A DNA stretch of 63,728 bases, filler included, from Phoronis australis (lineage: Eukaryota; Animalia; Phoronida), in assembly GCA_002633005.1 (NCBI GenBank). It is 9 parts of 9 records of this genome, joined end to end, with 100 filler letters (N's around TTAATTAATTAA, not from the genome) between each part and the next. Parts side by side here need not be neighbours in the genome. Positions count along the whole stretch, not along the records: positions 1 to 25,393 come from NMRA01001144.1; 8 more parts are not named here. One strand, given 5' to 3'. Shown in pieces: positions 4,044 through 40,531 of this stretch. Every line of letters starts with the position of its first letter. Positions within the stretch are counted from its first letter, which is position 1. A program made the translations under genes and the position numbers. The notes beneath the pieces were generated by a model that was not told where the DNA came from, did no database searches, and was given only the letters and a program-made list of their open reading frames with translations.

Positions 4044-4344
4044 TAATTTAGTTTACTCAAGGAGGAGTGTCGTTATTAAAGGCGAAGACAACCTTTATCC
4101 ATGTCATTTTGAGCTAAAATAAGGTTGGTTGGTTATCCTAGACATATTTTCCACTTAATTACAGGTTTTCGTAATTTTATTAATTACTCGTCCGCTACTG
4201 CGGAAGTGAAAGTTTAGGAGGCAAGCATTTCGCGCCAATTTCTTTTCATATAGTCTGACTGTGGGAGCTGCTGAGTCAGTCATTGTTCTACCTCGGTTAT
4301 GTTAAGTTCCGTCGTCGTTTGCTTTCATTTACTAGTCAGTCAAC

Positions 4345-4832
4345 ATGCCACACTGTTGCTGCATACCGGAATGAACTATTTATCGGCTCACGCACGCTTT
4401 GGGAGTGCCTTTGCATCGCTTTCCGATGTTGACACACTTCGCCGTACTTGGCTCGTTCGTGTGAAGAATTACGCAGCGTTACCCGTCCACGCAACGTACA
4501 AAGCAGTGGAGAATTACCGTGTGTGTGGCAAGCACTTTCTGCCGTCCGATTATGAAAGGAATTTGTACGCTGAACTGATGAAGGTCCCTGCGAAACAACG
4601 CCTGAAGAAGGATGCCATTCCGTCTGTGTTGATTCCCGACAGTGCCCCGTCGCCACCCCCGAGAAGTGCGTTTTTGAAGCAAGAAGCCTCGCGAACTGTG
4701 GCCAGTACAGTGATTGGAGCCAGTGGAGGCACTTCATCTACTGTCACCCGTGCCTCCGAACGTACCCCAGAGCGTGCAATTCCTGGAACCGTGATTCGCC
4801 CTGTGCTGTTTTCTCCAGCCCAGAGCCTCTAA
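4345..4832 (+). pseudogene. THAP zinc-finger domain (transposase N-terminus), frameshifted
   Basis: ATG start MPHCC.., LHRFP in a shifted frame, then LRRTWLVRVK..RVCGKHF..LKKDAIPSV, matching THAP C2CH residues and the AVP box. Confidence 0.8.
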
Positions 4833-4959: not shown

Positions 4960-5395
4960 CTATTTAGAGTGTGCCAGGTGTGTGGCGAGGGAGTCACACG
5001 ACACGATGTAAGCAGTTTGGGTGCTCAGGTCACCATCCAGTGGGAGTGTGTCGCGGGACACTCTGGCAAGTGTCCGTGGTATGCCGGAGGTCCACTTAAC
5101 CATGTCCAGTAGTGGCTTGGCCTCGTCGAACTCTGAACAGCACAGGCATTGTAGGCATAACAACGCACACAGTGCATTTGCACCAAGATGTTTTACCACG
5201 TCTGTCCTCAGTAGCCGCCCAGTTTCTCTCAACAGCTGCCTGTGCCTGTGCGTACTCTGCCTCTTTATACTCGGGCTCAAACATGTACCCACCCACTGAA
5301 TGTCCGTGAAAAAATTCCTCGTCGCCACTGCTGTAAACAAGGTCTCCGTAACTCACACTACTGTCACTGTGATACGGGTCACCGACTTCAGCCAT
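4960..5395 (-). pseudogene. P2X7 C-terminal (ballast)-like / KolX-like Cys-rich protein N-terminus, frameshifted
   Basis: Acidic leader, GYMFEPEY, then RRGKTSWCKCTVCVVMPT, frameshift, CLCCSE; matches the PYxFEP / WCxCxxCxxMPTxxECxCCxE pattern. Confidence 0.7.
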
Positions 5396-6069
5396 TTTCA
5401 GCTTACAACTAAACAATCCCTAAATCCAACGTAGTTGAGTTCTCTACTAAGCTATTATACCTCACATGAGCAAAAGTTTATGANAAACGCTTGCCTCCTA
5501 AAACGTCACTTCCGGAGTAGCGGACGAGTAATTAATAAAATTACGAAAAGCTGTAACAAAGTGGAAAATATGTCTACGATATCCAACCAACCTTATTTTA
5601 GCTCAAAATGACATGGAAAAAGGTTGCCTTCGCCTTTAACACTAATTTGGTGAAGATTTTACATGTTTACTGTTTTACGCACATCGGCGCCAAGCTGTAT
5701 ATTTAGTATACTGCTTTGCCGCACAAAGGCTAGTTATGATGATGCTTCACCCGAGAGCCAGAACGCCCATTTTTTTCTTGACTAAAATGTCAAATTGGAG
5801 GAAACGGATTTTCATTTTGTTCTAAAACAATTATGCATTGGTTATCTAGCTCAAAAGCGTGCAACGTGGTTGGTTTGTGGTTAAAACTCAAAAGCGCCGC
5901 ATGTCAATTACAATTAGCGATGTGTCCTGTGGCGTACAAAAGATTTTGTTGGATTAATCGGCACAAGACCTGCATATGCATACATATATAGCTCCATTGT
6001 ATGATCTAGATCTGTGTAGGCCTGCCAGTAATAAATCTTAGCTTGTTTGTCATTGCGGTTTCAATCCCT

Positions 6070-6225
6070 GGCGGGTCGGTCCCCGGCGGTCCTGTTTTCT
6101 AGTGAGGCGGTCATGCTTTTAGGTGCGTCAGTCCCATTTTCTGGTGCGATGGTCCCATTTGATCCCCATAGGTCCTGTTTTCGGTGAATCGGTCCAATTT
6201 AAGAGGACCGGCGGTCATGTTTCTC
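6070..6225. repeat. Degenerate ~20-bp minisatellite (GGTCCYRTTTT core, ~7 units)
   Basis: Repeated cggtcctgttttct / cggtcatgctttt / cagtcccattttct / tggtcccatttg / aggtcctgttttc / cggtccaattt. Confidence 0.6.
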
Positions 6226-7279
6226 ACCCGTGTATTTCTTTGAAAAAAGTGAGCTCAGTTCTCCCTTCAGCTGTGTGCCTAGGCTTCCTAGTAATCATTA
6301 CAATGGGTGTGTTCAAACTTGAAAGGTACCTATTGACAGTAGGCATCCAAATGATACATTGGGCGTCCGTGCCAGGGCGTCCATATTATTGCTAGGGTGT
6401 CCATTGGGACGCCCAGGACGTATGCTGCATGAAGGCCTGGTTCTTGATTGTGATGGATCAGTACTTGGTGGTTATTCAACCGATTGGACTATACTCGAAT
6501 CGAGTTACAATGAACCCAGTCCTCCATACTACAAGTTACACTTTCTCCAATGCACTATAGGTTATGCTTTCTGTACTTTGGTTTTGATGACATGGATACA
6601 ATGTTCATATGGTAATAATGTGCCAATTATATTTTTTGCAACTTTAGAGGAATCAGCGCATGCTTTTCGTGCGTGACGCTCAGGGACGTTGATTCGCTGT
6701 ACGTGGCTAGGCATCCTTTCATACAAAAATGTGGACCAAATGAAAACCTACCAGTTTATTGTAAGGACAGCATGACTCGACCTGCTTGTCGTGTATTTGC
6801 TGGAAATGTTTCGAGTATGAAACGATATGTGCTTGTGACTTGTGCAAGATTTTGCTATGAGCAGTGTGCAGCGCTGGACCATGTTAATTTTGTATTTCTA
6901 CCACTGAAAAGCCAACAGTACTCTTCTGGTATTCTAGTAGTATGTTTTTTATTTTGTCTCAAAAGTTGGTTTGCTTACTGCTGTTAACTTTTATTACAAA
7001 GAACATCTTTGATTTGTCCCATGAGGTTCATTGTAATGAAGTTCAACTGTTCTGCAGCATTTGCTGGTATTCCTTTATTGTAAGAAATAGTTTGGCAGAT
7101 TTTTTATGGGCTGTTATCATTTGTTTGTGTGGCACGCCAGCTTTTACAAACGTAGTTTGAATTTGATATTTTATTTACCGTACGTGCTATTTATTGATCA
7201 ACACTCTTGGAAGCATACCATTTGTAGAGCAGTTTTGGGTGCATTTCCACACTAAAAGCTTTGCTCTTGCTTGTTGCAG

Positions 7280-7645
7280 GTGTTGTTGATGCAGCTCTTG
7301 ATGTGAATGTTCCTGATGAGACCATTGCTATTGAAGGAGGTTCAGTTGTATTTGAAATCGGCTACACGACGAGTGACGGTGATACCTTCAACAAAGTTGA
7401 GTTGAAAAAGGGTACGCAGACTGTATTTACTGCACCTGAGGCTATCCAAGATCAGTTTTTCCCCAATGGATCGTTTTCAGGATCGTACATACCCCGTGGT
7501 TCTACTAACTACTATAAAGGCAGGACTCAGTTCACTATCACTTTAAGTAAAGTTACAACAGCAGATGAGGGAGCGTACACTGTTTATTTTACTAAAAACC
7601 TCAACGTAGCTGTTCCACCTGTTGTTGTTCAACTTGTGTTAGATG
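7280..7645 (+). CDS. Exon encoding the signal-peptide end plus an N-terminal V-type Ig-like domain
   Basis: Acceptor ttgttgcAG, donor G|GTAAGT, 366 nt, phase 1-1. Strand motifs AIEGGSVVFEI, RTQFTITLSKVTTADEGAYTV, VQLVLD. Confidence 0.8.
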
Positions 7646-8289
7646 GTAAGTACCTCTAAGGCTTTGCATAAGAAATCTCGATGTTTACCATGCGATGAAG
7701 CAATGTGCTTTGGTTGGTTTCTTTTTGAGTTTTGATCTTGTTCTTTCCAATATATATCAGACCTACGTACCGTACGCAAAAATGCTTTGTGGCACAGAAA
7801 CTTTGCTTGTAGTTCGCAAGTACTCAAAATCAGGCATAAATATGCAAATTCAAAGCAGATTATTTTCCGAGTTGTTACTCATTGGAAAGCTAATAATAGT
7901 ATTGATAGAAGAACCCATTCACATTATTCTAACTATAAAACGTGAGCTCCGAAGTCTGAAACTTTCTCCAATTCATTCTATATATAGCTAGATAATCAGC
8001 GAATCGCAAGGTTTCGTTTACGGTATTTAAAATCACCGGCCTATATTAGCTACTTATTAAATAAGTAATAAGCATCGTCTTCAGTGATTGGTGAATTTTT
8101 TATTTTGGACTATGCCCGGCGGCTAAATGCACATTGATCTGAACTATGAAGAAAATAGGTTCTGAAAGAAGAGAGTATCTGTTTTTGCCTTGTTATTCCA
8201 AGAAATGTCAGAAAGGGGACCGTCGAATTTGCGTTGCAAGTTGCATAGCGGGTTGTTCTCATTTGCATATGGTGACAGCACTGATACCC

Positions 8290-8450
8290 TGTAAAATGTA
8301 ACCATTTCGTAAAATATAACAACTGTTACATTTTATGTCATTGTTACATTGCTAGGCCTCTCCTAAAATGTAACAAGTTGTTACATTTGATGAAATTGTT
8401 ACAATTTACCTGAATGCACATGGAGAAATGTACCATTGTTACATTTAATG
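8290..8450. repeat. Cluster of inverted AAATGTAAC/GTTACATT motifs, probably a MITE remnant
   Basis: About 8 copies of the motif in both orientations within 160 bp. Confidence 0.5.
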
Positions 8451-9983
8451 AAAGGACCTCATGTTTCATGAGTTTGCAAGATATTTGTCAGACGGAGGAA
8501 GACCGTTCACACATTTAACGCCTCCTTCCTCGGATTGTGTGAATGCATTAATTCTATCAAATGTGCCGACTTTATAGACGTGTCCCTAATTATGTATTTT
8601 CCATGGTTTTTTGAACATGAGTTATTTAATGGTATAGTAAAAAGTGTACAGCGTACAGTTTCAACTCCACACGAAAGGTGTTTCAATGATCAGGTAACAA
8701 TATTTTTATCGTTAAAGCGTTGTTGCATGTTTTATTGGCGCTAATGAAGCAATTTTTATCCGACATCACACTAAACAAACTTCCCTTTTTAAGAACAACA
8801 ATGACATCGTATTTGGCTAATATTTACAGCATTTCTTCGGAAACGTACGAAAATCACAAAATTTGTCACGGAGAAATCAATTTCGGAAGCCAGTTTGATT
8901 GAAAAATCACCAGTTTTGGTCAAGGATAGTTTGGTTATTTCGGGCAGTGTTTTATTTGCCTTGAAGTCATTGCTAATACAGTAATTGCCCTGCTTCACAC
9001 AAAATGAGAAACCAAATTTCTGATGCCGACGGGCGCTGTCCATCACCTTAGTTACGAATGACGATTTCTCAAAGACATTGTGGTGAAAGGAAATAAAAGC
9101 ACGCATTTATTTGCCTGCAGGTTGACAGATTTTGCCAAAGCAACAGCAAAATATCTGCGTTGAGAAGGGCAAGCCATTAGCTCAAAAAGTGGCTCCATAT
9201 AGACCGGTATCCCAGAGGTTTTTTTGGGTATGAAAAGGTATCCAATTTTGGTGCCACAGTGCTCTGTGGGTATCCTCATGCTTGGAATTGGCGTCTGGCA
9301 GCTTCACTTTGGTGGGTATGGTCGGGGGGAGCCAAGAGAATGACACTCAAAAATTGAGCTAAATCAACTTTTCTGGTAACTACTTCAAACCGCCTTGGAT
9401 ACCTACTACGTTATCCACTGTATCAAAATTGGTCTCTGCCAGATAATTTCAGTGGTGGGAAGTATCAGCCAGGCGGTTATAAACAATGTGCAAAAATTGA
9501 GCTAGATCGATCCAAGAGGTAATCGCGTGAAACCTGAGTTTCAAAATATTCACCATGAGCCCAGGTATCGCGAATGAACACTGCCAGACAAATCTAGTGG
9601 TGGGTTAGCTTCGCCAGACATGCCCAAATACCTGAGGTGAGCTAGATCAACCCACCAGGTAACGGTTTTAAACCAATTACACGATGTTCAGCATCACTAT
9701 ACATGGCACAAGTGTTAGATGTCAGACATTTTCAGTGGTGGGTGCCCCTGCCAGACGATTAACAAAAAGGGTTAAAAATTGAGCTAGATCAACCCAAGAG
9801 GTAACCGCTTAAAACCAGTTCCAAAATATTCACCGTAAGCATAGGTATCACGAATAAACACTGCTAGACAAATCAAGTGGTGGGTTATCCCCGCCAGACA
9901 CGCCCAAAGACCTGAGTTGAGCTAGATCAACCCAAGAGGTAACCGCATGAAACCAGTTGCAAAATATTCGCCGTAAGCCCAGG

Positions 9984-12900
9984 CAGTGTTCTCCACGACC
10001 ACTTTTAACTTGTCAAAGCGTCCTGTTTGGCTGAACGCGCGTCCTGTTTAAATGTCCCGTGTCCTGTTTAAAAATCCCGCAATATAAAAATATAGGGACT
10101 ACTTTTTAAAAATGACATCGTCATTAATAAGGTCCTCACTGGTTCAAATCCTGCTTGGCAGCAACTGCAGGCCATAGCCCATTGAATCTGAAAAAAGGCC
10201 AAGTGGTCAGTTGTGGACAGCCTAATCACCGGTCTCACTCAAGCGGCAGACCGGGCCCCTAGTCTGTTTATGGTGTAACGTGGTGTGTAAATAATCTCTC
10301 AGTTATCTATTTAATTCATCTGGAACAACTAGTTATAGTCAACTGAATTTAAACAAAGGCCCAGTGGTACCTATAGGCCTCATCCACTACCTGCTCACTG
10401 GAGGTGCAGTCCCGCACAAAGTCGCTAATCCTTAGGCCTATGCTAGCCCTATGCGCTTTGAAGTCACCTTTTTGTGTTCGGTAGACAACTGATCATATTA
10501 CTGATTGAAAATAATTAAGACTTGGTGGTTAGTTCTGTGAAGTATATGTTGTCAGCGAAGTATATGTTGTCAGCAAAGACACCGCTGCTCAGCAGTTTAA
10601 ACTACGGCCATCTTCTGGGAGGCCAGAATTTTGGTTTTCGTAGCGCATTTTTCAATATTGGGTGGGCCACACGACACAGACTTTACCGCTACCTTCTCAA
10701 CAAACATTTGCATGAAACTGCTTTTGATGGTTCTCATTGGTTGTTGTTTGTGTACTTCTCACGTAGATGAATATTATTGGTTACTTTTGGTGCCACAGAC
10801 TATTGAGATTGACCGAGTTCATCTCGTTGCCTTATAAGGAGTTTCGTAGGCAACATGAACATTACACCTGTAAGGCATACTCCCTCTAAAAATCTGCCAA
10901 GCGTTCGCTAACTCAACTTCATTGGCTGGCATGACATTTGTGATTTCGAGGGAGTATTCCGAGATTTGGGACAGCGGGTGACGTCACTGAGTAAAGTTCA
11001 AATTATATGTCTCGCGCTGAGAAATTGTAGCCAAAATCACGTGCTCTCATTGAAGTCACACGGTAATATCTCGCATAATCTCACAGAGTCTTCTTTACCT
11101 CGCTTGGTCCTTACATTAGTGAATTCTATCCTGGCTTCCGTTACAGATTGACATGCGCATTCTACATACTTAGAAACGTTGTCTGCTGCGGGAAGGCAAA
11201 GGACCGCTAAGCCTCAGGATTATTTTAAAAACCGAAAGATGTTTCAGATAGTGACGTTGACTAAGATGCAGATACGACAGATAATCCAGGACCGGATGGT
11301 GGTGATGTTGCCGGGCTCGGTCAACAAATCGCAAATATCCGTGTCAAGAACGGTACGAACTGAATTTTTGTTGACAACGTCAGGCATCAGCAATGAATAA
11401 AAAGATGAATAAACACAGTTATTTGGTTGCACTACTGTGCATTACTATTAAAATGCGTGGGTAAAAATAAGGTGCACACTACAGTACAGCCACTGAATTT
11501 TTAGATTTTAATTTGTCCGGGCTACCTCACGCCTGGCCTGACCGGAGCGCAACCGGAACACAGGCGTGACAGAAATCAGTCACAGTCGCCTCACGCCTAC
11601 TCCCTGGGTGGACCTCATGCTTACCTCCGGTTTAGTTAACGCCTTCCTCACGCCTCGTTCATGCTTTCTTCGCGCCTCCGTCACGCTTACCTCACGCTTT
11701 CTTCACGCCTTCGGTAGCTGTGGTAACCATGGTAGGGCACCGGGCTAATCAGTAAAAATGCATGTAACGTCTTGATTGCCTGTCGTTTCGGTGAAGTTGC
11801 AAAGATATTACAGTGTATTATAGGGTATCTTTGCAAGCAGTCAGCTATCACACTTGGGTTTCGACTAACTCTGTAATTGCACGTGTTGTTCATACAAACG
11901 TCTCCCTTCAGCTCGTCTTGTGTTACACTTACATGTACATGTTCAATTTACGACTTAAAAGAGCCAGTCCCATTAACGACAAACATGTACTGTAACCACG
12001 ATTAGTAAATACGAATAAACGGGACCCTGTGTCCAGAGTCATCTTTACATGGCTGTAGACTCCTTGAAACTTGTCACAGGTGGATATAGTTAATTCGCCC
12101 TAAAAATAGCCTACGCATCTTGTGAAGTATTGTGTCACTCCGTAAATTTTTGCACCGCACTAGCGTACAGAAAATTTCAATAGGCCGCCCTTCTGAGATA
12201 CACATCCCTTACTGCAAGCAAATGTTTTGACTTAAAAGTCCTGAATCCGTAGTGCCCTTCAATTATTTGTAGCCCACTCCCCGTAGTACATGCATTTCGA
12301 CTGAGTACACAGTATCCCCGGGGTACTTCTCCACTAAAATAATTATAGTGGTCATCTGTTTGACTCATCAAATGCCAATTAGGCGTGATCAGTTTTCTCC
12401 GCATGATGCCGGATTTTGGGATCAATGTGCTCAAAATATAGACATGCTATGCTCCTTCATATCGTGAAGGCAATTGAATAATTCCACCGTGTACACGCGT
12501 GTTAATATTCTTTATTAGTTTATATAAAAACAAATAATTATATATAAGTGAAAAGTAAAGTCCACAGGTCTGTTTTCTGAAGTGACTTAAGATTTGAGAC
12601 AGAAATTTTGGTCTTTTACTGCACGTGACGATTTCAAAAAAAATTGAACCTCACATGAGCAAAAGTCTATGTGAATACACACATGACTGCTAGTTACTGA
12701 TGTAATTTTAATAAATTACTTTATCATCTGCGATGCAGGTAAACTCACGCCTAACTCACGGTAAGCTCCGGGTACAGTCACGCTTAGGCTCACACCAGCT
12801 GTCACGTTTGATTCACGCCTCACTCTCCGGTCTGTCTCGGGTTACAGTCACGGGTGGCTAGACCAGAGAGACACTGGAGAGAGTCTAATAATTCAGTGGT

Positions 12901-13002
12901 TGTACTGTAGCTTATGGAGAACGTTGACCGCTGTGCGGTTCCGGCACGTTACAGTTTTTACGCGTGCGACCTGTTTAGATTTTCAGATGTGGAGAACACC
13001 TG
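9984..13002. mobile_element. Non-autonomous hAT element
   Basis: TIR CAGTGTTCTCCAC / GTGGAGAACAC(C)TG; 8-bp TSD AGCCCAGG (9976-9983) / ATCCCAGG (13003-13010); subterminal GTCCTGTTT repeats. Confidence 0.8.
11482..12907. mobile_element. Tc1/mariner-type MITE, copy 2, nested in the hAT element
   Basis: Same TIRs and TA TSD as 2615-4043 and colinear with it throughout. Confidence 0.85.
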
Positions 13003-15630
13003 ATCCCAGGTATCAAGAATAAGTACTGCCAGACAAATCTAGTGGTGGGTTATCCCCACCAGACACGCCCAAGTACCTGAGTTGAACTAAATCAACCCAC
13101 CGTGTAACCATTTGAAACCAATCGACCGATGTGCAGCATCACATGCACGTGGCATAACAGTAAGATGCCCTAATCAGACAAATAAAGTCGAAACAAAATT
13201 GATTATACATGTAAGCCCATTCACAATGAATAACCATCACATTGAGGAACCAGGCACTTCGATTTTTAATAAAGCCACGGAGTCCGTACGACATAGGTTA
13301 CCACAAAAGTTGAAAGATTTTTGTCTGCAAGTTTACGTCAGGGCATGAAAACTAGAAACATCGCGCCTGGTGTCACAGCGACCTCACAAGTCTACACGAA
13401 AACAATGGAATACTCCACATGATTCACTTTTAAATAGCACATAGTGTTTGCACGAATTTCGATCTTTTGTTGTCTATTTTACCATTCTAAGCTGCGTCCC
13501 TCTATTTTCGGACGAGTCATTTGATGTTACCGTTAAAACGAATAATAACCAAAATGCGGTCTTTTACTGTCTTCTGCGTTATGTATGCGCGCCAACTACC
13601 TTCATTTCACCCAGTGATTAATGGCAAATTTGGCAAAACTTATCAGTTTTGGGCAATATCCATCTTTATGGTAAACCGAACCCACTTTTTGTCTTTATAG
13701 TAATTATAACACACGTTCGAATTAATTACTCATAGATTTTCGTTATGGTATTCAGTCACTGCGGCGACGGCCCCGGGCATCCACATTGGCGGAGGGGGTT
13801 GCAGTTGAATTAAATAAAGATTCTAGTTCATGCTTCACCTTTGACAGTCCTGTAGGTCCAGCCCCAGCATATTCGTTAAACATGTGATATGAATGGATAA
13901 TAACAACAAAATTGTTGCAGCTACTGGTGCAATTGTGCAATTACTACAATGATCCATGTAACTAAGTTAGTAATAATTTTAAATTTGCCTCTAATTCAAA
14001 GCGCTTCACGTGTTATCGGGTCGTACTCGGCAAACTTCGCCCGAGTACCAGTCTGTTTGTGTAGATGACAGGATCGTGTATATGATAAGGAGGAGGCTTT
14101 ATGTTATTCATAAACCATGTGCGTGGTGGCTACACCAAAGAGTAACAAGTGAGTCCAAATGTGAATGTCTATACCTAAGCATAAAAGTCTAACCCTATGA
14201 CCTTAGTAATTTTGTAAATAGCATTGAGAGAGTTCCCAAAAAATAGAGCGGTGTAAATGCCTTAAACTCGACCAAGAAACAAAACAGCAGAAATTTGAGA
14301 TTTGTTATTCTGCAATTTTAGTTTTCATTGAAAGCACAGTACGGTAGAGGTGTAGGCATTTTCAAATTTTGAATTGAAGGTGATCGTCAAAAATCCTGTT
14401 ATATTGTTCATCCAGTGTACTCTTTGATTGTTAATTGGTTGAGTGATATGAATGCCTTTACATGTTTGAACGTTTCTGTTGTTTTAAATGAGCATGCCAC
14501 CCAAAATCAACCTAATTTGTATCAATTTAGATCAAGTAGTTCTACTCCATAACGACACGTACGGTTGCGTTACCTGACACCTGGCGGCAGACGGAGGTGT
14601 TGAAGTTATCCAGTGACGTCATCGGTTTCACACGCAGTCTGTTCAGCAGTTCACAACATGGGTTAACTGGTTTCAGCTTATCGCTTGAAGTCATCGTTTA
14701 ACACCAATAAATCAACAAACTTCGATGTAAACCCTTAAAAATACACCGAGCTCTTATAAAAACGTGTTGTTTTATTTCGCTCTTACGGATTTATTGGTAT
14801 TTGGACACACCGTAGCCTACAAAATTCGGCAGGCCAATAAGGTCCGTAGCAGGAGTTTGGGGTCTGTTCGGAGATAATTTCGAAGTATTTTCCGTGAGAT
14901 ACAGACAGGAGAAACTATATCTGTGTTGTTTAGACTTGTGATTTTTTGAGCTCTAAACACAAAACGCTTGTTATCCTGGCCAGTGGCTCGGAACCCAATC
15001 AGGCCCGTGGTGGCCGCCCGGATTGATTCGTTATCCCAGCCAGTGGCTCGGAAACTGATCAGACATCACGAACATAAACGAGCCAAAGTTCAGTGGAAAC
15101 TAAACTTCTAGTCAAGAATATACTATACTAGTGAGCCAAAGTATTATGTGGTTGTGATTGTGTTGGTGAATTTAATCCACGAAAACTGCAAATCTACTTA
15201 CTGGTCGGGGGCCGCGAATTCACGTTCCGCTTTGGCCACAGCACCGTCTGAAGGGCAGAAGTTGTACATTGACAATCATTGTTTGAGTAATGTAAATGTA
15301 AATAAAGATTCCCCTAACACCTGGCCGTGGGATGGAAATCGAGTTGTTTCAAAACAGTTTCTGCCAGCAATTAAAACTCTAAATTAACATGAGCTCACAC
15401 GGCCTCGGACGTCCCGTCAATTAGTTTTATTGCACCTAAAGCCGGTGACACAGTGATTTATCCATTACTGGCTTTTCAAATCATTTGCACTGAGTGTCTC
15501 ATGAACACTCCAAAGACATCACAAATTGCATCTAATGAGACAGACTTTGTTTCAGATTCATATAAGTATTGGTTAGGGTGAGAATTCTATAATTCGTTTT
15601 GAAACAGAACGCTCAGTAATAAACGCCAAC

Positions 15631-15800
15631 ATGGCAACTCGCTATTCCGACTTAGGATGAGCTATAGAGCTCATCAGTCCCGACTTTGCAGGTGGATCGT
15701 TAAGTTTTACAGGCTATTGATTCGAACAGGAATATAGTGATGAAGAAATTACAGGCGCCGTGAAAAAGCTCAGACAACGGAACGTATGGAGTTGTTTTGT
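15631..15800 (+). pseudogene. Decayed KolX/P2X7-ballast-like N-terminus
   Basis: One frame reads MATRYSDLG*..GY*FEQEYSDEEI..NVWSC, resembling GYMFEPEY..SWCKC in the 4960-5395 ORF. Confidence 0.35.
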
Positions 15801-16216
15801 AAGCCTGCATTCGTCAGATAGAGTTTAGGACGGGTTTTCAGAAGATAATTTCCATTTTTCGCCATGACGTCTACTTTTTGAATTATTCGAGATTTTCTGA
15901 TAGCGCTGTTCCTTTGTTGACATGCTCTTGCTGCACTGATGTTGGTTTAGCTTCTGTTGAACAAGACCATACAGACATTGCTCATGGAGGCAGCATTTTT
16001 CGACGTGCAGGACTGAACATTCATTTGGTACGATTATTATAGCACACAAGCACTAAATTTGCACTGTAAATCTTTAACTTCCTGTCAAAGATGGTGGAAA
16101 TATCGGCAATGGCGCATGCGCACCTCGATAACCTCGAAAACGTTTTCTCCTGTAGAGGGCGCATTGGCGAACCAATCATTTTCAAACTGTTCACGTGTTT
16201 GTTGCTTTTGATCAGC

Positions 16217-18544
16217 TTTTATTATGCGCCCACATATTTATATGTGTACGCATTATGCCGTCATCTCCGTCTGTCCGTCCGTCCGGGCGGCGTCCGTCCG
16301 GCGTCCGCTGCTTTATCTCCAAAACCGTTTGATATACGTTCATGAAATTTGTCACCTATGTTCCATTCATGAATGGGACGGCATATGCGAACTTTCAGAC
16401 AGATCCGATTACCGGTGTGCCCCCTAGTGGCAATTTTAGTTTTTTACGCTTACCTTTGTATCTTCAAAAGTCCTGAATGGATTTTCATGAAATTTGGTAT
16501 GTAGGCACCTATTAATAAGATGACGCTATCATCCTGTTTTCAGATGGATTCGACATAGTTTGCGCCACCTAGTGGCCATTTTTAGTGTTTTCGAGTCTGT
16601 ATTTTTGCGTCCACCCCTGTATCGACCAAACCGCTCAAAGGATGATTGTGAAAATTGGCATGTACATGTATATGCTTACTATGTAGAGGACGGTTGACGA
16701 TGATTTTCCGACGATTTCGACTACTGTGGCGCCTCCTAGTGGCAGTTTTTTTTGCGCCTATGGCTGTATCTCCTAAACCGTTCGCAAGATCTTTACAAAA
16801 TTGTGTAAGTATATTTAGGTGATGTTAACAACGGAAGATGACGACTTCTGGATGGATCCGACTACTGGTGTGCCCCCTAGTGGCAATTTATTTTTTTTAC
16901 GCTTACCGTTGTATCTTCAAAAGACCCAGTCTCCAATCTTTTTACTCGAAATGGAACCCGAAATTAGGTTTGGCATTTTCTACTCTACTTTTGGGCGAAC
17001 TCAAGATAAGTGGCTATTATTCTATGCTCAAGTACACAATAACTTACGTAGATAATTTATTGCCCTTAGTTCACAGGTTGTAAAGCAATAAGTTTGAGTT
17101 TGAACTCGAAATTTCGAGTTTTTACTCGAGTTTGTAGCACAAATATAAGGGTCTTCAAGGGCAAACTTGAACTAGAAACTCCTTTGCATAAACTATAATG
17201 TATTCAAGCACAGTCTGATAACCAATTATCTTAAGTTCGCACAAAAGGAGCAGAGAAATTGCCAAAAATAGTTTCGAGTTCGTTTCGCGTACAAAGATTA
17301 GAGACTGGGCCCCTGAATGGATTTTCATGAAATTTGGTATATAGGCACCTATTAGTAAGATGACGCTATCCTCCTGTTTTCAGATGGATTCGACATAGTT
17401 TGCGCCACCTAGTGGCCATTTTTACTGTTTTCGAGTCTGTATTTTTGCGTCCACCCCTCTATCAACCAAACCGCTCAAAGGATGATTGTGAAAATTGATG
17501 TGTATGTGCTTACTATAAAGAGGACAGCTGTCAATGATTTTCAGACGATTTGGACTACTGTGGCGCCTCCTAGTGGTATTTTTTTGCGCTTATGGCTGTA
17601 TCTCCTTAACCGTTCTCAGGATCTTTACAAAATTTAATAAGTGTATTTATATTATGTTAACAACAGGCGATGACGACCTACCAGTGTGCCCCCTAGTGGC
17701 AATTTTAATTTTTTTATCTTTACCTCTGTATCTTCACAAGTCCTTAACGGATTTTCATGAAATTTGGTATGTAGGCACCTATTAGTGCGATGACGCTATC
17801 CTCCCGTTTTCAGATGGATTTGACCTAGTTTGCAACACCCAGTGGCCATTTTTACTGTTTTTGAGTCTGTTTTTTGGCGTCCACCCCTCTATCAACCAAA
17901 CTGCTATAAGTATGATTGTGAAAATTGGCATGTATGGTGTTACTATGAAGAGGACGGTTGACGCTGAATTTCCCATGACTTTGATTACTGTGGCGCCTCT
18001 TAGTGGCAGATTTTTTGTGCCCATGGCTGTATCTCCCAAATCGTTTGCTGGATCTTTACTAAATTTAGCAAGTGTATTTATGTGATGTTGACAACGGACG
18101 ATGACGACTTAAGTATGATTCTGACTACCGGTAAGCCTCTAGTGGCAATTTTAGTATTTTACATTGACCTCTGTATTTTCATAGGTCTTCAGGTGTATAA
18201 TTTGTGTTACTTCGTGACTATGAAGGAAAATTTCCAAGTACAAATTTGTTTCTGGCATTCTAATGCTGTGCTAATCTCGTATGTTGGTAAATTTGTTTAT
18301 AATTCTATGTTTCTGTGGTGCTTTATGCAACTGATGTATAGGATGTGCTTGTATTATGAAGATCACTCACATTTTGCCCCTAGCCTATTGAGGAGACAAT
18401 GACCATGCCTTTCCATTTTGCAAAGTACAACATACTACATATATGCCCTCTACTGGCCACTTTAAGGTACCAATAAACAACCGTAGAAGGATACCGTATA
18501 CGGTAGAATTGTGGGCGCATTTCAACACTCTGCATTGCTCTTGT
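16217..18544 (+). mobile_element. Helentron-associated (HINE/DINE-1-like) non-autonomous element with internal tandem array
   Basis: T-rich 5' end, subTIR ATGCGCCCACA (16224) / TGTGGGCGCAT (18510), (GTCC)n microsatellite at 16265-16305, internal repeats with GAAATTTGG and CCTAGTGG cores, 3' end ..GCATTGCTCTTGT. Confidence 0.75.
16923..17311. mobile_element. MITE (PIF/Harbinger-like termini) inserted in the HINE array
   Basis: ~50-bp imperfect TIR GACCCAGTCTCCAATCTTT.. / ..AAAGATTAGAGACTGGGCC; interrupts the unit sequence CTTCAAAAG^TCCTGAATGG. Confidence 0.65.
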
Positions 18545-18599
18545 AAAACCAGAAGTCACTTTCAAGATGGCGGCCTGGCGCATTTTCACCCATTTTGGT

Positions 18600-19200
18600 G
18601 TTGCTCATAATCCCCATTATCATCATGATAATCATCGTCGTCGTCATCTCCATCGTCGTCTTTTTGGTTAACTTTGCCAAGTGTCGCTCCTCCGTTGCCA
18701 GTTTACCGGGTGCGTGAACAAGACCACAGGCTATTTCTTACCGATTTGTTCGCTAGTCACATGAATGTTATCGTCTTGTTCATAATCTCCGCCGTCATCA
18801 TCGTCGTCGTCCTCCCCATCATGCTGTTTTCGCGTAATTTTGCCAAGTGTCCCTCTTCCGAGCGCTCTCGCACTGTTGTCAGTTTACCGGGTGCATGAAC
18901 AAGACTGCATACTATTTCTTACTGATTTGTTCGCTAGTCACATGAATGTTATCATGTTGTTCATCATCTCCGCTATCATCGTCGTCCTTCTCCTCCCCAT
19001 CGTCCTGTTTTCGCGTAATTTCGCAAAGTGTGGCTCCTAGCGCACGTTTTTTTGTTTGTTCGCACAATACAGGTTGCAATTTTCGTCCGATCATCACGAA
19101 ATTTACACATAACACGTAGTTTTGGAAATACTGGAAGCCTATTGTTTTTCATCATAATCAGATCCAAGATGGCGGATGTGGCGGCCATTTTGTTTTCATT
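18600..19200. repeat. ~180-bp tandem duplication with (ATC/GTC)n tracts, part of another interspersed element
   Basis: AGTTTACCGGGTGC at 18700 and 18881; TGTTTTCGCGTAATTT at 18826 and 19006. Confidence 0.7.
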
Positions 19201-19204
19201 TTAC

Positions 19205-19540
19205 CCTGTTGAAATGTTTCATGAATGTTCATTAACTATTCATGTACTGTTCATGAAGTAGTTCATGAATAAATTCATGAAAGTTCATAAATGTTCATGA
19301 AATACAAATGAGACAATTCCTGAAATGAAAACTTGGTTCATGAACTAAATTCACCAACTTAATTCATGAACTATCATGAACTAGTTCATGAACATTCCTT
19401 AATTAGTTCATGAACTAGTTCATGAACTTGTCTCATTTGTATTTCATGACCCAAAATTCATGAAAATATTTCATGAACTCCAAGTTCATGAACTAAATTC
19501 GTAATGTAAGTCCATTGAGCTGTATTTCATGAATGATCTT
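19205..19540. repeat. TTCATGAA-rich fold-back repeat
   Basis: More than a dozen TTCATGA(A) palindromes; perfect IR CATGAAATACAAATGAGACAA (19296-19316) / TTGTCTCATTTGTATTTCATG (19428-19448). Confidence 0.75.
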
Positions 19541-20188
19541 GTTCAATAAATGCCATGCTAATGTAAATTAGTGCACTCAGTGATACTGGTTAGCCAATTG
19601 CACCCATAATAACGTCAGTTATAAGTAATATCTTTACTACCATTGATTTCACTTATCATTGAACAACACTTTTTCACACTAATAATATTTGTAAAGCTAT
19701 TACGGAGTACACAATAATTTGAATAAATTCAATGTTAAGGTAGGTAAAAAATCTTTAATTTGAGACAAAATAATTTTCTAAATTGTTATGTTTCTGTTTT
19801 ACTGAAGCTTACCACATTTTTGCAAATATTTCAAAATTTTACCAAATATTGCTTAGTAATAGCCATGAAATACAAACCTTGCTAAAAGTAAAAAAATTTT
19901 TCCTGGAAATTTACTCTTGTTGAGAAATTTGTGTCCCAAGCTGAAAGTTTTTTACTACAATCTTAACAATATACCTAAACAAGTAACAAATATTTAGCAA
20001 TGAACAATGTCTGGGCTAAAGGCAAATCAATCGGACAGTCTGAAACTAAATTAGACCCAGTGGAATGGAAGATGCTTCACAAAATCTCTGAAATAGTCAC
20101 ATTTCTTCTGGTAAACTGGAGGACCAGCTTTATAGGACTAATTGCTGTCTCACTGTCCTAAAAATTGGTGTATTGAAATAAAGATTTA

Positions 20189-20762
20189 TTTGAGAACGTA
20201 GGTTTTGGGCCCATCTTGGTTCATTCGCTGGGGTAATAGCGGAGGATTTCCATGTCATGGCTACCTGTGGGCGGTGCTTGGCCGTTTTCAAACACTACCT
20301 GGTGGCTGTCACTTAAGAGCAGGCACTGGTAAATGGCAGGTAATTCGTAGCCACTGTCTTTGTACAACTGTCTTGTTACTCATGATTCCGACTGATTCTT
20401 GGATTTGCAATTTTAACAAATATTGTGTGAACTATCCACACAGTGTTCTCCCATGGCTGTAAATATACGACATGATATGTTAAATTATTTTTTAGTCTGG
20501 TGGTCCCAGTGGTATCACCAACATATTTCACTTGGCAATCTATGCACTCAATCACATATATAACCCCGCACTTCGTGTTGTCGTCTGACTTACTTTTCGG
20601 CTGGACCAATTTACTTTGTATGGTGCGCTGGTTTGTGCTACGTGTCCACCTGATAATCTCTGAAAATGTTAGTTAATTTTTCCAAGAGTCAGAACGTATG
20701 TAAGCACTATGTTAACTCTAAAAGGGTGAACGTCTTTATGTAGACACATTGAGTCTTGGATC
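20189..20762 (-). mobile_element. Decayed Penelope-like element 3' part (GIY-YIG), left arm
   Basis: LVQPKSK..KCGVIYVIECIDCQVKYVGDT, the Penelope/Poseidon-type endonuclease start. Confidence 0.75.
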
Positions 20763-20790
20763 AAACACCTAGTTGGAAGTAGTCATGCTC

Positions 20791-21440
20791 GATCCAAGAC
20801 CCAATGTGTAAGGAGGTTGAAACTTCTGGAATTTGTTGCCCTTCCATACGTTCACAATACCTCAGGAATACTGTCTAACATTTTCAGAGAACACCACGTA
20901 GGCACATACCGTAAACCATTCAACACCCTACAGAGTGTGTTGGTCCACCCGAAAGACACTTCATAAGACAACAAGAGGGGACGGGTGGGGTGATATAATA
21001 TATATTTATATCAGTATACATGATCGAGTGCCCAGATTCTCCAGGGAAATATGTTGCTTAGATCGACTCGGAATTTAGGAACCAAACTAAAACAACATTT
21101 CAACACATCATCTGGCATCCTTACAGTCGTAGAATACTGTATGGATACTTCACACATAGTTTGTAAACCCACAGTTAAAACATTATTTTGAAAGAAGCAA
21201 TATTAGAACTGCAAAATTCCAGAATCAGTTGAAATCAAGAGTAAGAAGTGTCAAGTGAGAGATGAACAGAGACAGTGTCTATGGATAACCTGCCATTTAC
21301 CAATACCTCCTCTCAAGAGATAGCCACCATGTAGTATGTCACAACTGCCAGGAACAGCCCCAGGTGGTCACGATAGAGAAATCCTCACCACTACCCCAAC
21401 TAAAGGTGCGCAGGATGCCCTGAAAACTAGGTTCTCAAAT
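20791..21440 (+). mobile_element. Decayed Penelope-like element 3' part, right arm
   Basis: VALPYVHNTSGILSNIFREHHVGTYRKPFNTLQSVLVHPKD, the typical linker before the PLE GIY-YIG; homologous to the reverse complement of the left arm. Confidence 0.8.
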
Positions 21441-22353
21441 ATAACCAGGCCTCTGATAGGAAATAATCGTTGTATGTATATAACACCGCTGGCAATGAAC
21501 ATTCATTCTACAACCTGTGTACTGTGTGATTTGTGGTAACGAACGACAAAAACTTTGCACAGCTCCAGCTGGCCCCGTTGCTCCGGCACTTAGGTCTGAC
21601 CTTTTTTCACCACTATAAATTAATTTCCATGCCTGGATCTCAGCATGTGTTTTACATATTTTATTTCTTGCACATGCATTGCAACTTATAGTTACTGAGC
21701 ATACTAGTGTCAATGGAATCCAACCAATTCACGGACAGTACGGTGATAACACCATTCTCACTGAAAAAAACACCTTTTCCAGGTTTCGTCTATGGGTATT
21801 AGTGGGAAAATTGGATCAACAACTTCTCTTGCTCTCTGTGTAGCAGATGATATAATCGTAGCCACTTGCTTGGAGGATTTGCATTTTGTGACTGTTCATA
21901 GTTGTACATGTACACGTGTCAGTTTGAGGCACGTTGATGCTCGTCAAAACAATTAACTTGAGTACGATTTCTCCCACTGGAAAATATTAGTGATGAAAGA
22001 CGACGATTGAAGCCAAACAACATGGAAATAATATCCAAGTTTCACATTTTGAAAACTTTACAGATCTGTCACAATCTCAAGCACAATATTCAAACAGGAC
22101 TTTTGAAGTTTCACCAACTTGTACCTGAGACAATTTGTCTTCCAAAATGGTCACCTCCACTCAGTTCTGTAGTAAAACCATGTCTACAAATATGTGGCCA
22201 GAAAATAGTTCTTCATATGGATCAATGATGATGACACATGTTGAGGTGCTGGTTTTTGTCTGTCAGACTAATGTCAGATTTTCTCAATTGTGCACCAAAT
22301 TTTGCTTATTAAAGATATGAATACTTAATATAAAACTTAAATGTAATTTGCAG

Positions 22354-22389
22354 ACACTATTAAGCCAACTGGAAGTGGAGAAGGTGGAG
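22354..22389 (+). CDS. 36-nt micro-exon 1, (D)TIKPTGSGEGG
   Basis: tttgcAG|...GGAG|GTATGT; open in phase 1-1. Confidence 0.7.
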
Positions 22390-23355
22390 GTATGTCAATA
22401 TTTTTCTCAAATTTAAAAACTTAACATTAGGCAGACAATACCCCACTTTCAAGCATCAACAACACCAGTTTCCTATCAATGCAATTGGAGTTGTTCTTCC
22501 AAACTGCAAATCCCCCTGTACGAACTCAGGTTTTCCTGATGAACACTGGTAGTGTTAGCTCTTCTATTGATTACATGAGGCATTAGTTTTAGGTATTGCT
22601 TTAGGCCCCGATGTCCAAACTACCATGACATTGTTGAAAACATAATTTTCCAAATGTTGCGGAAATGGCGTAAGGAATGAAGTAAACCAAATAGTACACT
22701 TTGTTGAAGGGACCTCCCAGGGAAATGCTATTACCTTCCCAAGTACAGAACTGTCTTTTTATTGATTTTACGCTAATGCATTTATAAGGTATTTCAATTA
22801 CATAATAGTGGTATAGTGACTTATTTGCAACTTGTAAAAGCATGTTCATTTTCTTATTTGGCTGTTTTTTTTTTAATTTGAATTTTCTTAGTCACACGGC
22901 TACAGTCCACTTTTCTTATGAGTTCATCCAACTTTCTCTTATTGGGGCTGACTTCTTTGTGAACATGTTTCGCACGTTTGTTAGATCATCATTTGTTGGA
23001 AAGTACTCCTGCTCCACCAGGGAATTTGTTGCAATGGGTACTTTTAGAACCTAATCCACATGGTGGCGCTATGACTATGTCAAACATGTCAGGATTCCCA
23101 GTCCTGGCTCCTCTAACTACAGATCAACAAGTGTTTTGGTACTAAGACAAAGAAATTTGTGAACGCCTTTGATGCTAAAGTTTCGTTTCATTTCTTTCAG
23201 TGTAGTATGAATAAGAAAAAGCAGACATACCTGCATGTACAACCACAATAAAATTTTGCCTCTTGCTTTTTCATTTCTTTTGAGCCTAAACTTTGAAGTA
23301 TAGATACGTACATTGTATAAGAATATTCATGGTGCAACTAAATTTTGATTTACAG

Positions 23356-23391
23356 ATACTGTTAAGCCAACAGAAAATGGAAAAAGTGGAG
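23356..23391 (+). CDS. 36-nt micro-exon 2, (D)TVKPTENGKSG
   Basis: tttacAG|...GGAG|GTATGA; open in phase 1-1. Confidence 0.7.
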
Positions 23392-24352
23392 GTATGAAAT
23401 ATTTTTCTCAATTTTAAAAACTTAACATTATTCAGACAATACCCCACTTTCAAGCATCAACAGCACCAGTTTCCTGTCAATGCAATTGGAGTTGTTCTTC
23501 CAAACTGCAAATCCCCCTGTACGAACTCAGGTTTTCCTGATGAACACTGGTAGTGTTAGCTCTTCTATTGATTACATCAGGCATTAGTGGTAGGTATTGC
23601 TTTAGGCCCCGATGTCCAAACTACCATGACATTGTTGAAAACATAATTTTCCAAATGTTGCGGAAATGGTGCAAGGAATGAAATAAACTGAATAGTACAC
23701 TTTGTTGAAGGGACCTCTTAGGGAAATGCTATTACCTTCCCAAGTATCAGAACTGTCTTTTTATTGATTTTACGCTAACTCATTTATAAGGTATTTCAAT
23801 TACATAATAGTAGTATGGTGCCTTTTATTTGCAACTTGTAAAAGCATGTTCATTTTCTAATTTGGATGTTTTTTTAATTTCAATTGCTTAGTCACGCAGC
23901 TACAGTCCACTTTTCTTATGAGTTAATCCAATTTTCTCCCATCGGGGCTGACTTCTTTGTGAACATGTTTCGCAGGTTTTGTTAGGTCATCATTTGTTGG
24001 AAGGTACTCCTGCTCCACCAGGGAATTTGTTGTGATGGGTACTTTTAGAACCTAATCCACATGGTGGCGCTATGACTATGTCAAACATGTCAGGATTCCC
24101 AGTCCTGGCTGCTCTAACTACAGATCAACAAGTTTTTTGGTGCTAAGACAGAGAAATTTGTGAACGCCTTTGGTGCTAAAGTTTAGTTTCATTTCTTTCA
24201 GTTTAGTATAAATAAGAAAAAGTAGACATAGCTGTACAACCACTATAAAATTTCGCCTCTTGCTTTTTCATTTCCTCTGTGCCTCAATTTTGAAGTATAG
24301 ATACGTACATTGTATAAGAATATTCATGGTGCAACTAAATTATGATTTACAG

Positions 24353-24388
24353 ATACCGTTAAGCCAACAGAAAATGGAAAAGGTGGAG
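24353..24388 (+). CDS. 36-nt micro-exon 3, (D)TVKPTENGKGG
   Basis: tttacAG|...GGAG|GTATGA; open in phase 1-1. Confidence 0.7.
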
Positions 24389-24895
24389 GTATGAAATATT
24401 TTTCTCTAACTCAAAATTAACTTTAATCTCTGAAGACTGATCATATAAGTAGGTAAACCACATGCCACTCTCAAAAGAGTGTTTGACCAAGTGAGAAGTA
24501 AGAAATACTGGGAAAGCAAAGAAAGCTACCTGTATGTTCAAACTTTCATACTGAGTGATATTGCAGCATTCAGGGAGTGTATATCAATAGTCTCACTTTA
24601 GTTTGGCAAAGTGATTATTACAGTATGATCGAGAACCTTAACCCTAGAAAACCCTTTTGCTGTGGGAAGATGAACTATTACGACTGGCATGAGTTTGATC
24701 TTGGCAACTCGCCTTTTGTGGCATAGACGTTCTGAACACAAGATAGATGTCAACTGTACCCTACCCTTTCTACCAACACTCAGCAGTCTATATTAAGTTT
24801 GCGTGTTTCACTGGCGCACAGTGACTATTCGTCACTTGTGTGGAGACTCCACTTTTATAAGAAAATTTAATGTAAAGCTAAATTATGGTTTACAG

Positions 24896-24931
24896 ATACC
24901 GTTAAACCAACTGGAAATGGAGAAGGTGGAG
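24896..24931 (+). CDS. 36-nt micro-exon 4, (D)TVKPTGNGEGG
   Basis: tttacAG|...GGAG|GTATGC; exon and splice flanks conserved while the surrounding intron is unrelated to the 1-kb unit. Confidence 0.7.
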
Positions 24932-25393
24932 GTATGCCAATATTTTTTTCTACATGCTATGAACATTCTCACTAAATAAGATTGGTCCTAACCCCAGTGG
25001 TTAAGGTAAACGGTGGGGTATGGAAAATTGAAGTAGACCGCAGTTATCCACCTTGGCTGAGTCGCACTCGGCTCACGATCAAAGTGATGCCGCCAAGCTG
25101 CTCTAGTCATCGAGTCACGAGCGAGGATAATTGGCTTCGCTCATGCCAATATGATCAGCTGTTTACAATCTAGCTAGCAGACTGTAGTTTTTATGGAGAG
25201 AGTTTTACGTAGTTTTTACTGTAATATTTGAAAAGACGAGCGAAAACAAATATGAGTACAACTTTGAATTTTTCAAATCGGCCCAGGATAAGAGATTTTG
25301 CAACACAGCAACACTCACGATTACTTTCATTCGGCGCGCACTAATACAAAAATATAGGACCCAAGTTATTTAGATTTTGGAACACATGCATTG

Positions 25394-25493
25394 NNNNNNN
25401 NNNNNNNNNNNNNNNNNNNNNNNNNNNNNNNNNNNNNTTAATTAATTAANNNNNNNNNNNNNNNNNNNNNNNNNNNNNNNNNNNNNNNNNNNN
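25394..25493. other. Artificial contig spacer 44N-TTAATTAATTAA-44N (also 28396-28495, 31440-31539, 40432-40531, 49512-49611, 52411-52510, 58096-58195, 62284-62383)
   Basis: The same 100-nt linker, with stops in all six frames, occurs eight times. Confidence 0.97.
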
Positions 25494-40431: not shown

Positions 40432-40531
40432 NNNNNNNNNNNNNNNNNNNNNNNNNNNNNNNNNNNNNNNNNNNNTTAATTAATTAANNNNNNNNNNNNN
40501 NNNNNNNNNNNNNNNNNNNNNNNNNNNNNNN

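Follow-up and report, generated by a model that had tools for sequence, protein, structure and literature searches.

The individual features of the locus described here are already known singly, namely V-set domains without the canonical pin in Hydractinia Alr, splicing that alters stalk length in Botryllus fester and in CADM1, and micro-exon repeats of approximately 1 kb in SmPoMuc. Domain 1 of Hydractinia Alr1 and Alr2 is presented as a V-set domain without the two pin cysteines and usually also without the tryptophan, and in 2022 its authors were aware of no further V- or I-set domain without both (PMC9546547). For the Botryllus fester family (FF; FcoR), a variable N-terminal V-like Ig domain is described whose position with respect to the membrane shifts when one to three extracellular exons are spliced out; the receptors form a multigene family, are spliced in a genotype-specific manner and also contain a Sushi domain and three TM helices (PMC12582321). 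In CADM1/SynCAM1, small in-frame alternative exons with Thr (exons 8-9) are reported to determine how long the stalk of this Ig adhesion protein is, and an 11-residue stalk exon switches its shedding (PMC5385562). SmPoMuc of Schistosoma mansoni carries a tiny symmetric exon of 27 nt within exon-plus-intron repeats of approximately 1 kb, of which up to 20 homogenised copies (>93% alike) are described; repeat number is thought to shift by unequal crossing-over, transcripts mix unit types and contain more repeats than the gene (exon repetition), and no Ig domain is described in the portion of the source available to us (PMC2576457). Finally, schistosome micro-exon genes (MEGs) are outlined as having symmetric micro-exons, which make up as much as 75% of the coding sequence, skipping variants, and secreted or anchored products (PMC4015677).

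The window, i.e., the entire 63,728-nt stretch of Phoronis australis DNA that we analysed, contains a V-set Ig exon followed on the same strand by an array of four micro-exons, and we consider it probable (approximately 0.6) that the micro-exons form the flexible stalk of an Ig-superfamily protein, secreted or at the surface, that carries at its tip the domain of the Cys- and Trp-less V-set exon located 14.7 kb upstream, with a variable V domain serving cell-cell or non-self recognition, or adhesion. The features are as follows.

7280-7645, + strand: V-set Ig exon of 366 nt, phase 1-1, with CAG acceptor and GTAAGT donor (sequence, Pfam, Atlas, RNA)
7646-22353, + strand: presumed repeat-rich intron of 14.7 kb (phase 1-1 exon scan)
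22354-22389, + strand: micro-exon U1, DTIKPTGSGEGG; Ser-Gly beside acidic residues; joined in RNA to U3, to U4 and, head to tail, to U1-like copies
23356-23391, + strand: micro-exon U2, DTVKPTENGKSG; hybrid, with U3-like upstream flank and exon and U1-like downstream intron
24353-24388, + strand: micro-exon U3, DTVKPTENGKGG; RNA joints U1>U3 and U3>U4
24896-24931, + strand: micro-exon U4, DTVKPTGNGEGG; RNA joints and loose ends
22334-24428, + strand: tandem duplication of approximately 1.0 kb, spanning intron and micro-exon, by which the array gained one unit (copy comparison)
25394-25493, no strand: run of N, taken as an assembly gap of unknown size, starting 462 nt past U4

This locus can be likened to Botryllus fester or CADM1 for stalk splicing, to SmPoMuc for the array and to Hydractinia Alr for the V domain, but it is a member of none of them. 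As in Alr, the V exon lacks both Cys and Trp, whereas here micro-exons come after it; no Alr-characteristic exon was found between V and U1 by the exon scan, the 3' end of the gene lying outside the window. The Alr family is further marked by a TM helix, a cytoplasmic tail and allele-specific binding, and the 3' exons that would encode the helix and tail are likewise absent from the window. A Sushi-sized or convincing TM exon, as expected for FF, was likewise absent from the window scans, which do not extend to that 3' end, and the skipped FF exons are not described, in the part of the source available, as tandemly duplicated micro-exons (PMC12582321). CADM1 differs in being a vertebrate gene with IgV and IgC2 domains and, as far as its description extends, in having stalk exons that are not copies of each other. 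The similarity to schistosome MEGs proposed in the initial annotation holds for the symmetric micro-exons, but SmPoMuc is the closer counterpart of the array, and in contrast to MEGs as outlined, the micro-exons here make up 28% of the known coding sequence (144 of 510 bases) and are near-identical copies. In common with SmPoMuc as described, a symmetric exon (36 nt) sits in a repeat of approximately 1 kb and unit types are mixed in RNA; here, however, 93% likeness is confined to one intron pair, with the remaining introns at background, and the array is preceded by a V-set exon. The likeness is one of architecture alone and no homology is claimed. No paper describing this combination in one gene was listed by searches of the open-access literature.

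The V exon encodes 121 residues with one N-glycosylation sequon (N62) and neither Cys nor Trp (0 of each), and hence lacks the Cys-Trp-Cys pin of V-set domains. Its earlier identification as a Cys-less V-set domain upstream of the units was nevertheless upheld by a borderline pass of Pfam V-set PF07686 (26.1 bits against a cut-off of 26) and by Atlas matches of 0.93-0.95 (0.95 for the first), in which all ten of the ten best with a family belonged to the V-set family or clan. Sequence comparison with solved structures, which gave matches only at E >= 0.026, aligned I26 and V101 to both Cys of CD7, while the hallmarks EGGSV (Gly turn before strand B), D95 (salt bridge) and Y99 (Tyr corner), as well as FTITL (core hydrophobic residue, strand E), aligned with CD7 and Fab chains. 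R72, a candidate salt-bridge Arg with uncertain register against the solved domains, is kept in protein P0006. A structure model built from a two-sequence alignment reached a mean pLDDT of 43, too low for a usable picture of the nine-strand V-frame fold, and had no Foldseek match at E <= 0.001.

A search of 1.84 billion protein representatives returned 13 matches to the V domain, of which four were examined: P0006, a true relative, two bacterial-looking Ig-repeat proteins and one unrelated repeat protein. P0006, the lone animal-like relative found, is 40% identical, has no Cys, has a hydrophobic N-terminus and carries PF07686; it was the single relative among 154 near-length candidate proteins, and none was present among 414 longer candidates. 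No named Alr protein matched the V domain in the protein searches, and neither V relatives nor the unit pattern turned up in metagenome scans. The V exon starts with VVDA, probably the last residues of a signal peptide, and three leader exon candidates (2435, 3776 and 6942) were all weak and unconvincing.

All four 36-nt units were present at 22354, 23356, 24353 and 24896 in the arrangement AG|exon|GTATG, with phase 1-1 frames that are open and encode DT(I/V)KPT(G/E)(S/N)G(E/K)(G/S)G as first read; a fifth unit was not found on either strand of the window, where the next best match shared 25 of 41 letters. That the units are spliced exons of the + strand, as previously proposed, was confirmed by GT..AG joints in raw-read RNA runs X1, X2 and X3 of the same species but from other individuals, of which approximately 18-19 of every 100 reads were covered. 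Six unit joints, each flagged 'between: not known', were among the best 15 of 466 joints. They comprised 776, 625 and 9 reads (X1, X2, X3), mostly from two of the three runs, with the first mate on '-' as against 4, 0 and 0 on '+', so that the direction of the RNA fits the + strand. U1>U3 was represented by 154, 130 and 3 reads, the anticipated 24388>24896 junction (U3>U4) by 166, 165 and 1 reads, and U1>U4 by 96 and 58 reads. Head-to-tail joints of U1-like copies (236 and 137 reads) and U4-like copies (67 and 63) were also seen in the RNA of these other individuals, in agreement with the view that transcripts vary in unit make-up. Since the RNA is from other individuals, skipping is indistinguishable from alleles or paralogs. 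Neither 22389>23356 nor 23391>24353 was among the best 15 of 466 joints, nor was any other joint of U2, to which some reads nevertheless fit best. Estimated depth was 454, 344 and 0 (X1, X2, X3) for U1 and approximately 269, 264 and 0 for U3, but only 58 and 27 for U2. At U4, 438 and 405 reads had loose ends (agreement 0.64 and 0.62) that continued in frame into sequence absent from the window, with the mixed consensus ESAG(P/R)NDIPN. Additional units probably exist in RNA. X4 contigs, which cannot show absence, gave no depth in the bins covering U1-U3 and the 5' V exon.

The V exon and the four units translate without a stop, their shared strand and the phase 1 donor of the V exon having been noted in the initial annotation, and the stretch joining them is spacer-free, with zero N in 5485-25393. 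No other convincing exon had been noticed between V and U1, and a phase 1-1 exon scan, with a filter chosen to retain each of the five known exons, yielded one further candidate (18185-18286), which lies inside a repeat; U1 was the first credible in-frame acceptor past the V donor. RNA cover of the V exon was strand-specific and on the same strand as the units, with approximately 17-42 reads per listed site in X1 and approximately 30, 29 and 3 reads (X1, X2, X3) on its 3' part. Both V exon and units were far scarcer in X3 than in X1 and X2, three runs being a weak test of co-expression.

The units could instead be part of a different gene, for example that of a mucin or small proteoglycan, with 5' exons elsewhere or missed, the V exon being a separate or decaying neighbour. 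Stalk depth (approximately 270-450) exceeded that of V (approximately 16-30 on average, 42 at most) roughly ten to one, at 88% likeness, and a different upstream exon would give the same excess. Moreover, the V>U1 junction (7645>22354) was absent from the best 15 of 466 joints, the V exon and units are 14.7 kb apart, and in X3 the 5' part of V drew 15 reads but each unit joint three or fewer. On the other hand, the agreement in strand and phase, the lack of a second credible exon between V and units, the drop of both in X3, and a V exon that is intact with strong splice sites all argue for one gene, and we regard a separate origin of the units as unlikely. If the V-unit link is true, the locus would offer a tractable candidate family of recognition receptors in a poorly studied animal group, of a type overlooked by gene finders. 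Provided that the animal is a bilaterian, for which a weak creatine kinase tree speaks, V domains lacking Cys as well as Trp would then no longer be limited to cnidarians.

Nearly all mapped V reads differed from the window at the 10 best-supported sites (among the best 40 of 2785 rows), and eight of these ten letters alter a residue (six codons). X3 contained at least two V variants, with 6 of 15 reads having the X1/X2 letters at 7316. Given the ten-fold stalk excess and the mapped V reads that differ from the window, divergent variants of V probably have the stalk in common.

With one gene accepted, the product might still be a structural or matrix glycoprotein, its RNA variants arising only from several fixed paralogs, without regulated skipping or recognition. 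Ser-Gly with nearby acidic residues occurs in U1, GSGEGG(D), and U2, SG(D), matching the glycosaminoglycan-site definition as given in PMC2063922 and recalling proteoglycan core proteins; extra genomic copies would account for the head-to-tail joints. The search for the expected downstream TM or GPI exon also failed to yield a convincing one in the window: 36 downstream acceptors gave one weak candidate, and TM-like frames at 10644, 17667 and 35610 were weak or in repeats. As the exon following the array, 20494 was rejected, being upstream of U1, without a right-phase acceptor and with almost no reads. The missing 3' exons may lie in the N run at 25394-25493 or beyond. However, Ser-Gly is absent from U3 and U4 and thus present in only two of four units, and most of the listed V differences alter a residue. 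Binding receptors typically have one N-terminal V-set domain atop a spacer, as would this protein, and a purely structural role appears quite unlikely to us.

For the favoured recognition or adhesion protein, the following mechanism can be envisaged. With a length of 36 nt and phase 1-1 throughout, units could come or go without a frameshift. The likeness of approximately 95 nt around each unit would let copies mispair, and unequal crossing-over would then alter unit number in the DNA, while exon skipping may alter it in the RNA. Alleles or paralogs could combine a conserved stalk with V exons that diverge, the V tip setting binding specificity and the stalk setting reach in steps of 12 residues, and the Ser-Gly sites of U1 and U2 could, judging from their sequence context, carry glycosaminoglycan chains. 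The most likely job would be recognition (cell-cell or non-self) or adhesion. A bolder and doubtful extension is that the locus represents a bilaterian-invertebrate family of its own, consisting of hypervariable Alr-like pinless V-set receptors for self/non-self, in which the V tip changes fast and the recombining stalk array of 12-residue micro-exons varies in unit number and glycosaminoglycan load among alleles and, through skipping or exon repetition, among transcripts of a single allele.

Comparison of the duplicated copies (22334-23433 and 23336-24428; 91.8% over 1104 columns, with introns 93% alike and indels present) partly revised the proposal that units 1-3 arose by duplication of approximately 1 kb: one event, not two, gave the U2/U3 pair and two intron copies, and the upstream flank of U1 lies outside it. 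We consider it very unlikely that this duplication is an assembly artefact of two alleles in tandem, leaving three units with U1>U3 as an ordinary junction under either gene reading, because, despite the low depth of U2 (58 and 27 against 269 and 264 for U3) and other tandem duplicates in the window that centre on single Ns (36496, 38198, 38800 and 39461), there is no N in or near it, the copies diverge by 7-8% with indels and U2 is the best fit of some RNA reads. The concern that the 1-kb unit is a dispersed transposon was also checked, and no further copy was found anywhere in the window.

U2 shares 34 of 36 letters with U3, and its upstream flank is 0.89 alike to U3 and its downstream flank 0.94 to U1, with the crossover placed in a donor-flank stretch common to U1 and U3. 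Sequence of U3 and of U1 has recombined in U2, in the pattern expected of unequal crossing-over, and the micro-exon array has been caught growing through recombination between its own exons. The observation that only the exon and splice flanks are conserved around U4 was reproduced and applies likewise to U1 and U3 (approximately 40 nt of acceptor and 20 nt of donor flank, 79-84%), the outer flanks of the three scoring 0.42-0.57, where the background is 0.45 +/- 0.04 and reaches 0.55 at most. Over very few sites, and in pairs that are not independent of each other, pS exceeded pN in all six unit pairs.

The gene fragment at this locus is genuine, is expressed and is unusual; the locus holds a V-set Ig exon (V exon) and four micro-exons (U1-U4, the proposed stalk) in sequence that is N-free from 5485 to 25393 and followed by a 100-base gap (25394-25493).

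7280-7645, plus strand: V exon, 366 nt, CAG acceptor, GTAAGT donor, phase 1-1
Starts 22354, 23356, 24353 and 24896, plus strand: U1, U2, U3 and U4, each 36 nt between AG and GTATG, phase 1-1
Starts 25394, 28396, 31440, 40432, 49512, 52411, 58096 and 62284: eight 100-base pads, each an all-frame stop linker of 12 bases set in Ns, read as gaps of unknown size

All four 36-nt AG/GTATG units of the initial annotation were found in place and open in phase 1-1, and the five exons read through stop-free, the peptides after the V domain being DTIKPTGSGEGG, DTVKPTENGKSG, DTVKPTENGKGG and DTVKPTGNGEGG in unit order. No fifth unit was detected on either strand (best match 25/41). Four RNA runs of the same species label, three of raw reads (X1, X2 and X3; 18-19 in 100 of each used) and one contig set, were mapped onto 5500-25390 at 88% likeness. 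Six of the 15 joints listed (best 15 of 466) were unit-to-unit, all flagged 'between: not known', so that letters unseen may separate the pieces. Reads in X1, X2 and X3, respectively, numbered 154, 130 and 3 for U1>U3, 96, 58 and 0 for U1>U4, and 166, 165 and 1 for U3>U4, each with GT..AG borders; head-to-tail joints comprised a U1-like class (236, 137 and 3), a U4-like class (67, 63 and 2) and another U4>U4 class (61, 72 and 0). First mates of unit-joint reads lay on the minus strand in 776/780, 625/625 and 9/9 cases, indicating plus-strand RNA given the usual stranded library (library type unrecorded). Moreover, 438 and 405 reads left U4 into sequence absent from the window, with a mixed consensus (agreement 0.62-0.64) reading ESAG(P/R)NDIPN in frame. 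These joints and reads bear out the annotation of the units as spliced exons, whose make-up varies by transcript; the head-to-tail joints show that some transcripts have more U1-like and U4-like units than the assembly, and the reads past U4 that the gene extends beyond the assembled part. Since the RNA came from other individuals, skipping, alleles and paralogs are indistinguishable as the source of this variation. U2 had low depth (58 and 27): few alleles may contain it, splicing may skip it, or it may be an artefact of assembly.

The V exon and the units quite probably form one mRNA. At 88% likeness, stalk depth was ~10x V depth, a ratio that a different upstream exon on the units would explain equally well, and 7645>22354 was absent among the joints listed (best 15 of 466). 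We nevertheless regard such an exon as unlikely, since the V exon and the units share strand and phase, U1 was the first credible in-frame exon past the V donor in a phase scan, and both dropped in X3 (rough depths from bin means in X1, X2 and X3: 3' V ~30, 29 and 3; U1 ~454, 344 and 0; U3 ~269, 264 and 0). In agreement with the claim that no convincing exon lies between them, a scan filtered so that the five known exons pass gave one further candidate, within a repeat. With V exon and units on one mRNA, most stalk-bearing transcripts would have V exons too divergent for 88% mapping. At 10 listed sites, seven of which fall within 32 bases (best 40 of 2785 difference rows), nearly all V-mapped reads carried other letters than the window; 8/10 carried residue-changing letters (D12S, T14I, I17V, E18K, V22A, K79Y), and X3 held at least two V variants.

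The proposed ~1-kb duplication of units 1-3 was recovered as a single tandem event rather than several (22334-23433 against 23336-24428, 91.8%; introns 93%). Within the window, a dispersed-transposon origin of the repeat is rejected, its intron having no further copies there. U2 resembles U3 in its upstream flank (0.89) and exon (34/36 letters) and U1 in its downstream intron (0.94), the switch falling inside a donor-flank stretch common to U1 and U3; this hybrid would be the expected remnant of unequal crossing-over with U3 mispaired to U1. In older copies, likeness (79-84%) is confined to ~95 nt comprising the exon and its splice flanks; the outer flanks score 0.42-0.57, at or close to the background of 0.45 +/- 0.04, as had been noted around unit 4. 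From sequence comparison, pS > pN in 6/6 unit pairs (~9 synonymous, ~27 other sites) is at most suggestive.

The description of a Cys-less IgV exon was supported: the V exon matched Pfam V-set at 26.1 bits (cut-off 26) and contains neither Cys nor Trp. In alignment with CD7, I26 and V101 occupy the two Cys positions; the Gly turn is conserved, as are D95 and Y99. The protein look-up Atlas returned small eukaryotic clusters at 0.93-0.95, most commonly V-set; the top three were unnamed, and their few labelled members were mostly cnidarian. Cys is likewise absent from P0006 (146 aa, 40% identical, on a 1139-base contig), the sole animal-like relative found. Neither the fold model (pLDDT 43) nor the fold search was informative, and scans of the window found neither a leader nor a membrane-anchor exon. 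U1 and U2, and not U3 and U4, contain Ser-Gly with acidic neighbours, fitting the definition of putative glycosaminoglycan sites in PMC2063922.

In the Botryllus fester family, splicing removes one to three extracellular exons in 26/38 genes (PMC12582321), and the proposed gene might work likewise; shedding of CADM1 is governed by an 11-residue stalk exon (PMC5385562), a stalk change by small exons such as may occur here. Schistosoma mansoni polymorphic mucins share the array architecture, with a 27-nt exon in ~1-kb repeats and transcripts with more repeats than DNA (PMC2576457). Domain 1 of Hydractinia Alr likewise lacks disulfide Cys and Trp, its authors knowing no other V- or I-set domains without both (PMC9546547). 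The suggested likeness to schistosome micro-exon genes holds for the symmetry of the exons and fails on a defining feature (PMC4015677); one defining feature each of Alr, the fester family and the mucins is also missing, and the locus is assigned to none of the four. Sponge GranRep and Ciona YYD genes contain polymorphic secreted repeats, those of GranRep within one exon (bioRxiv 10.1101/2024.12.24.630263). Searches of open-access text listed no paper that describes a V domain without Cys and Trp, stalk-length splicing and ~1-kb micro-exon repeats together in one gene.

Spliced symmetric units, several RNA combinations, a recombinant unit and V variants among samples form the observed base of the mechanism we propose. 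The V exon and units would be transcribed into one mRNA and the product exported, as the signal-peptide-like V exon start, a sequon and the hydrophobic P0006 N-terminus suggest; the Gly/Pro/Thr-rich units would be a flexible spacer altered in 12-residue steps, and the V tip the binding part, serving recognition or adhesion. We give this overall reading a probability of about 0.6.

The window contains further elements:

2821-3863 and 11713-12756: ~1-kb element, two copies 8.9 kb apart, 90-95%
4275-4832, plus strand: THAP-domain fragment, above cut-off
5096-5419, minus strand: P2RX7_C-like frame facing the THAP fragment, weak (E 0.096)
20187-21441: degenerate fold-back element, 63% self-complementary
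36490-40479, plus strand: LTR retrotransposon remains (DUF1759)
40834-42174 and 45666-47119: direct duplicate ~4.9 kb apart, 95-97%, longer by eye
44225-44656: DEAD-box helicase fragment, below cut-off (E 0.00035)
50085-51486, minus strand: creatine kinase gene, coding exons 1 and 2 (Pfam ATP-gua_PtransN)
59139-60680, plus strand: reverse-transcriptase-like frame, 698-base gap, GIY-YIG-like frame

The post-U4 consensus had no good match in the window, the best (21/30, reached by 7/200 shuffles) being 20494-20586 on the plus strand, which encodes ESGGPSGITN followed by a moderately hydrophobic run that ends at a stop. Possibly this is a decayed terminal-exon copy, but almost no reads cover it, and it falls within the fold-back element and upstream of U1. 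The internally repeated element at 16124-18779 (depth 560-1250 across the three raw-read runs, with most reads from a single strand), of which 18135-18427 has an inverted copy at 28069-28361 (96%), is probably a dispersed repeat that many transcripts carry. The THAP and P2RX7_C-like frames, flanked by inverted arms (4076-4249 and 5466-5639), are likely a DNA transposon remnant. We take the LTR remains to be BEL/Pao-like; the tandem duplicates breaking them (50-223 nt, centred on single Ns) are probably gap-closing artefacts. The frames at 59139-60680 presumably represent a Penelope-type element. The creatine kinase, which places the animal no more closely than as a marine invertebrate and possible lophotrochozoan, is 71-81% identical over ~110 residues to annelid, brachiopod, hemichordate, sponge and cnidarian cytoplasmic enzymes, and in a tree of 28 rows (27 hand-chosen of the 120 hits listed) it groups with Lingula at 87/89, under the support threshold.
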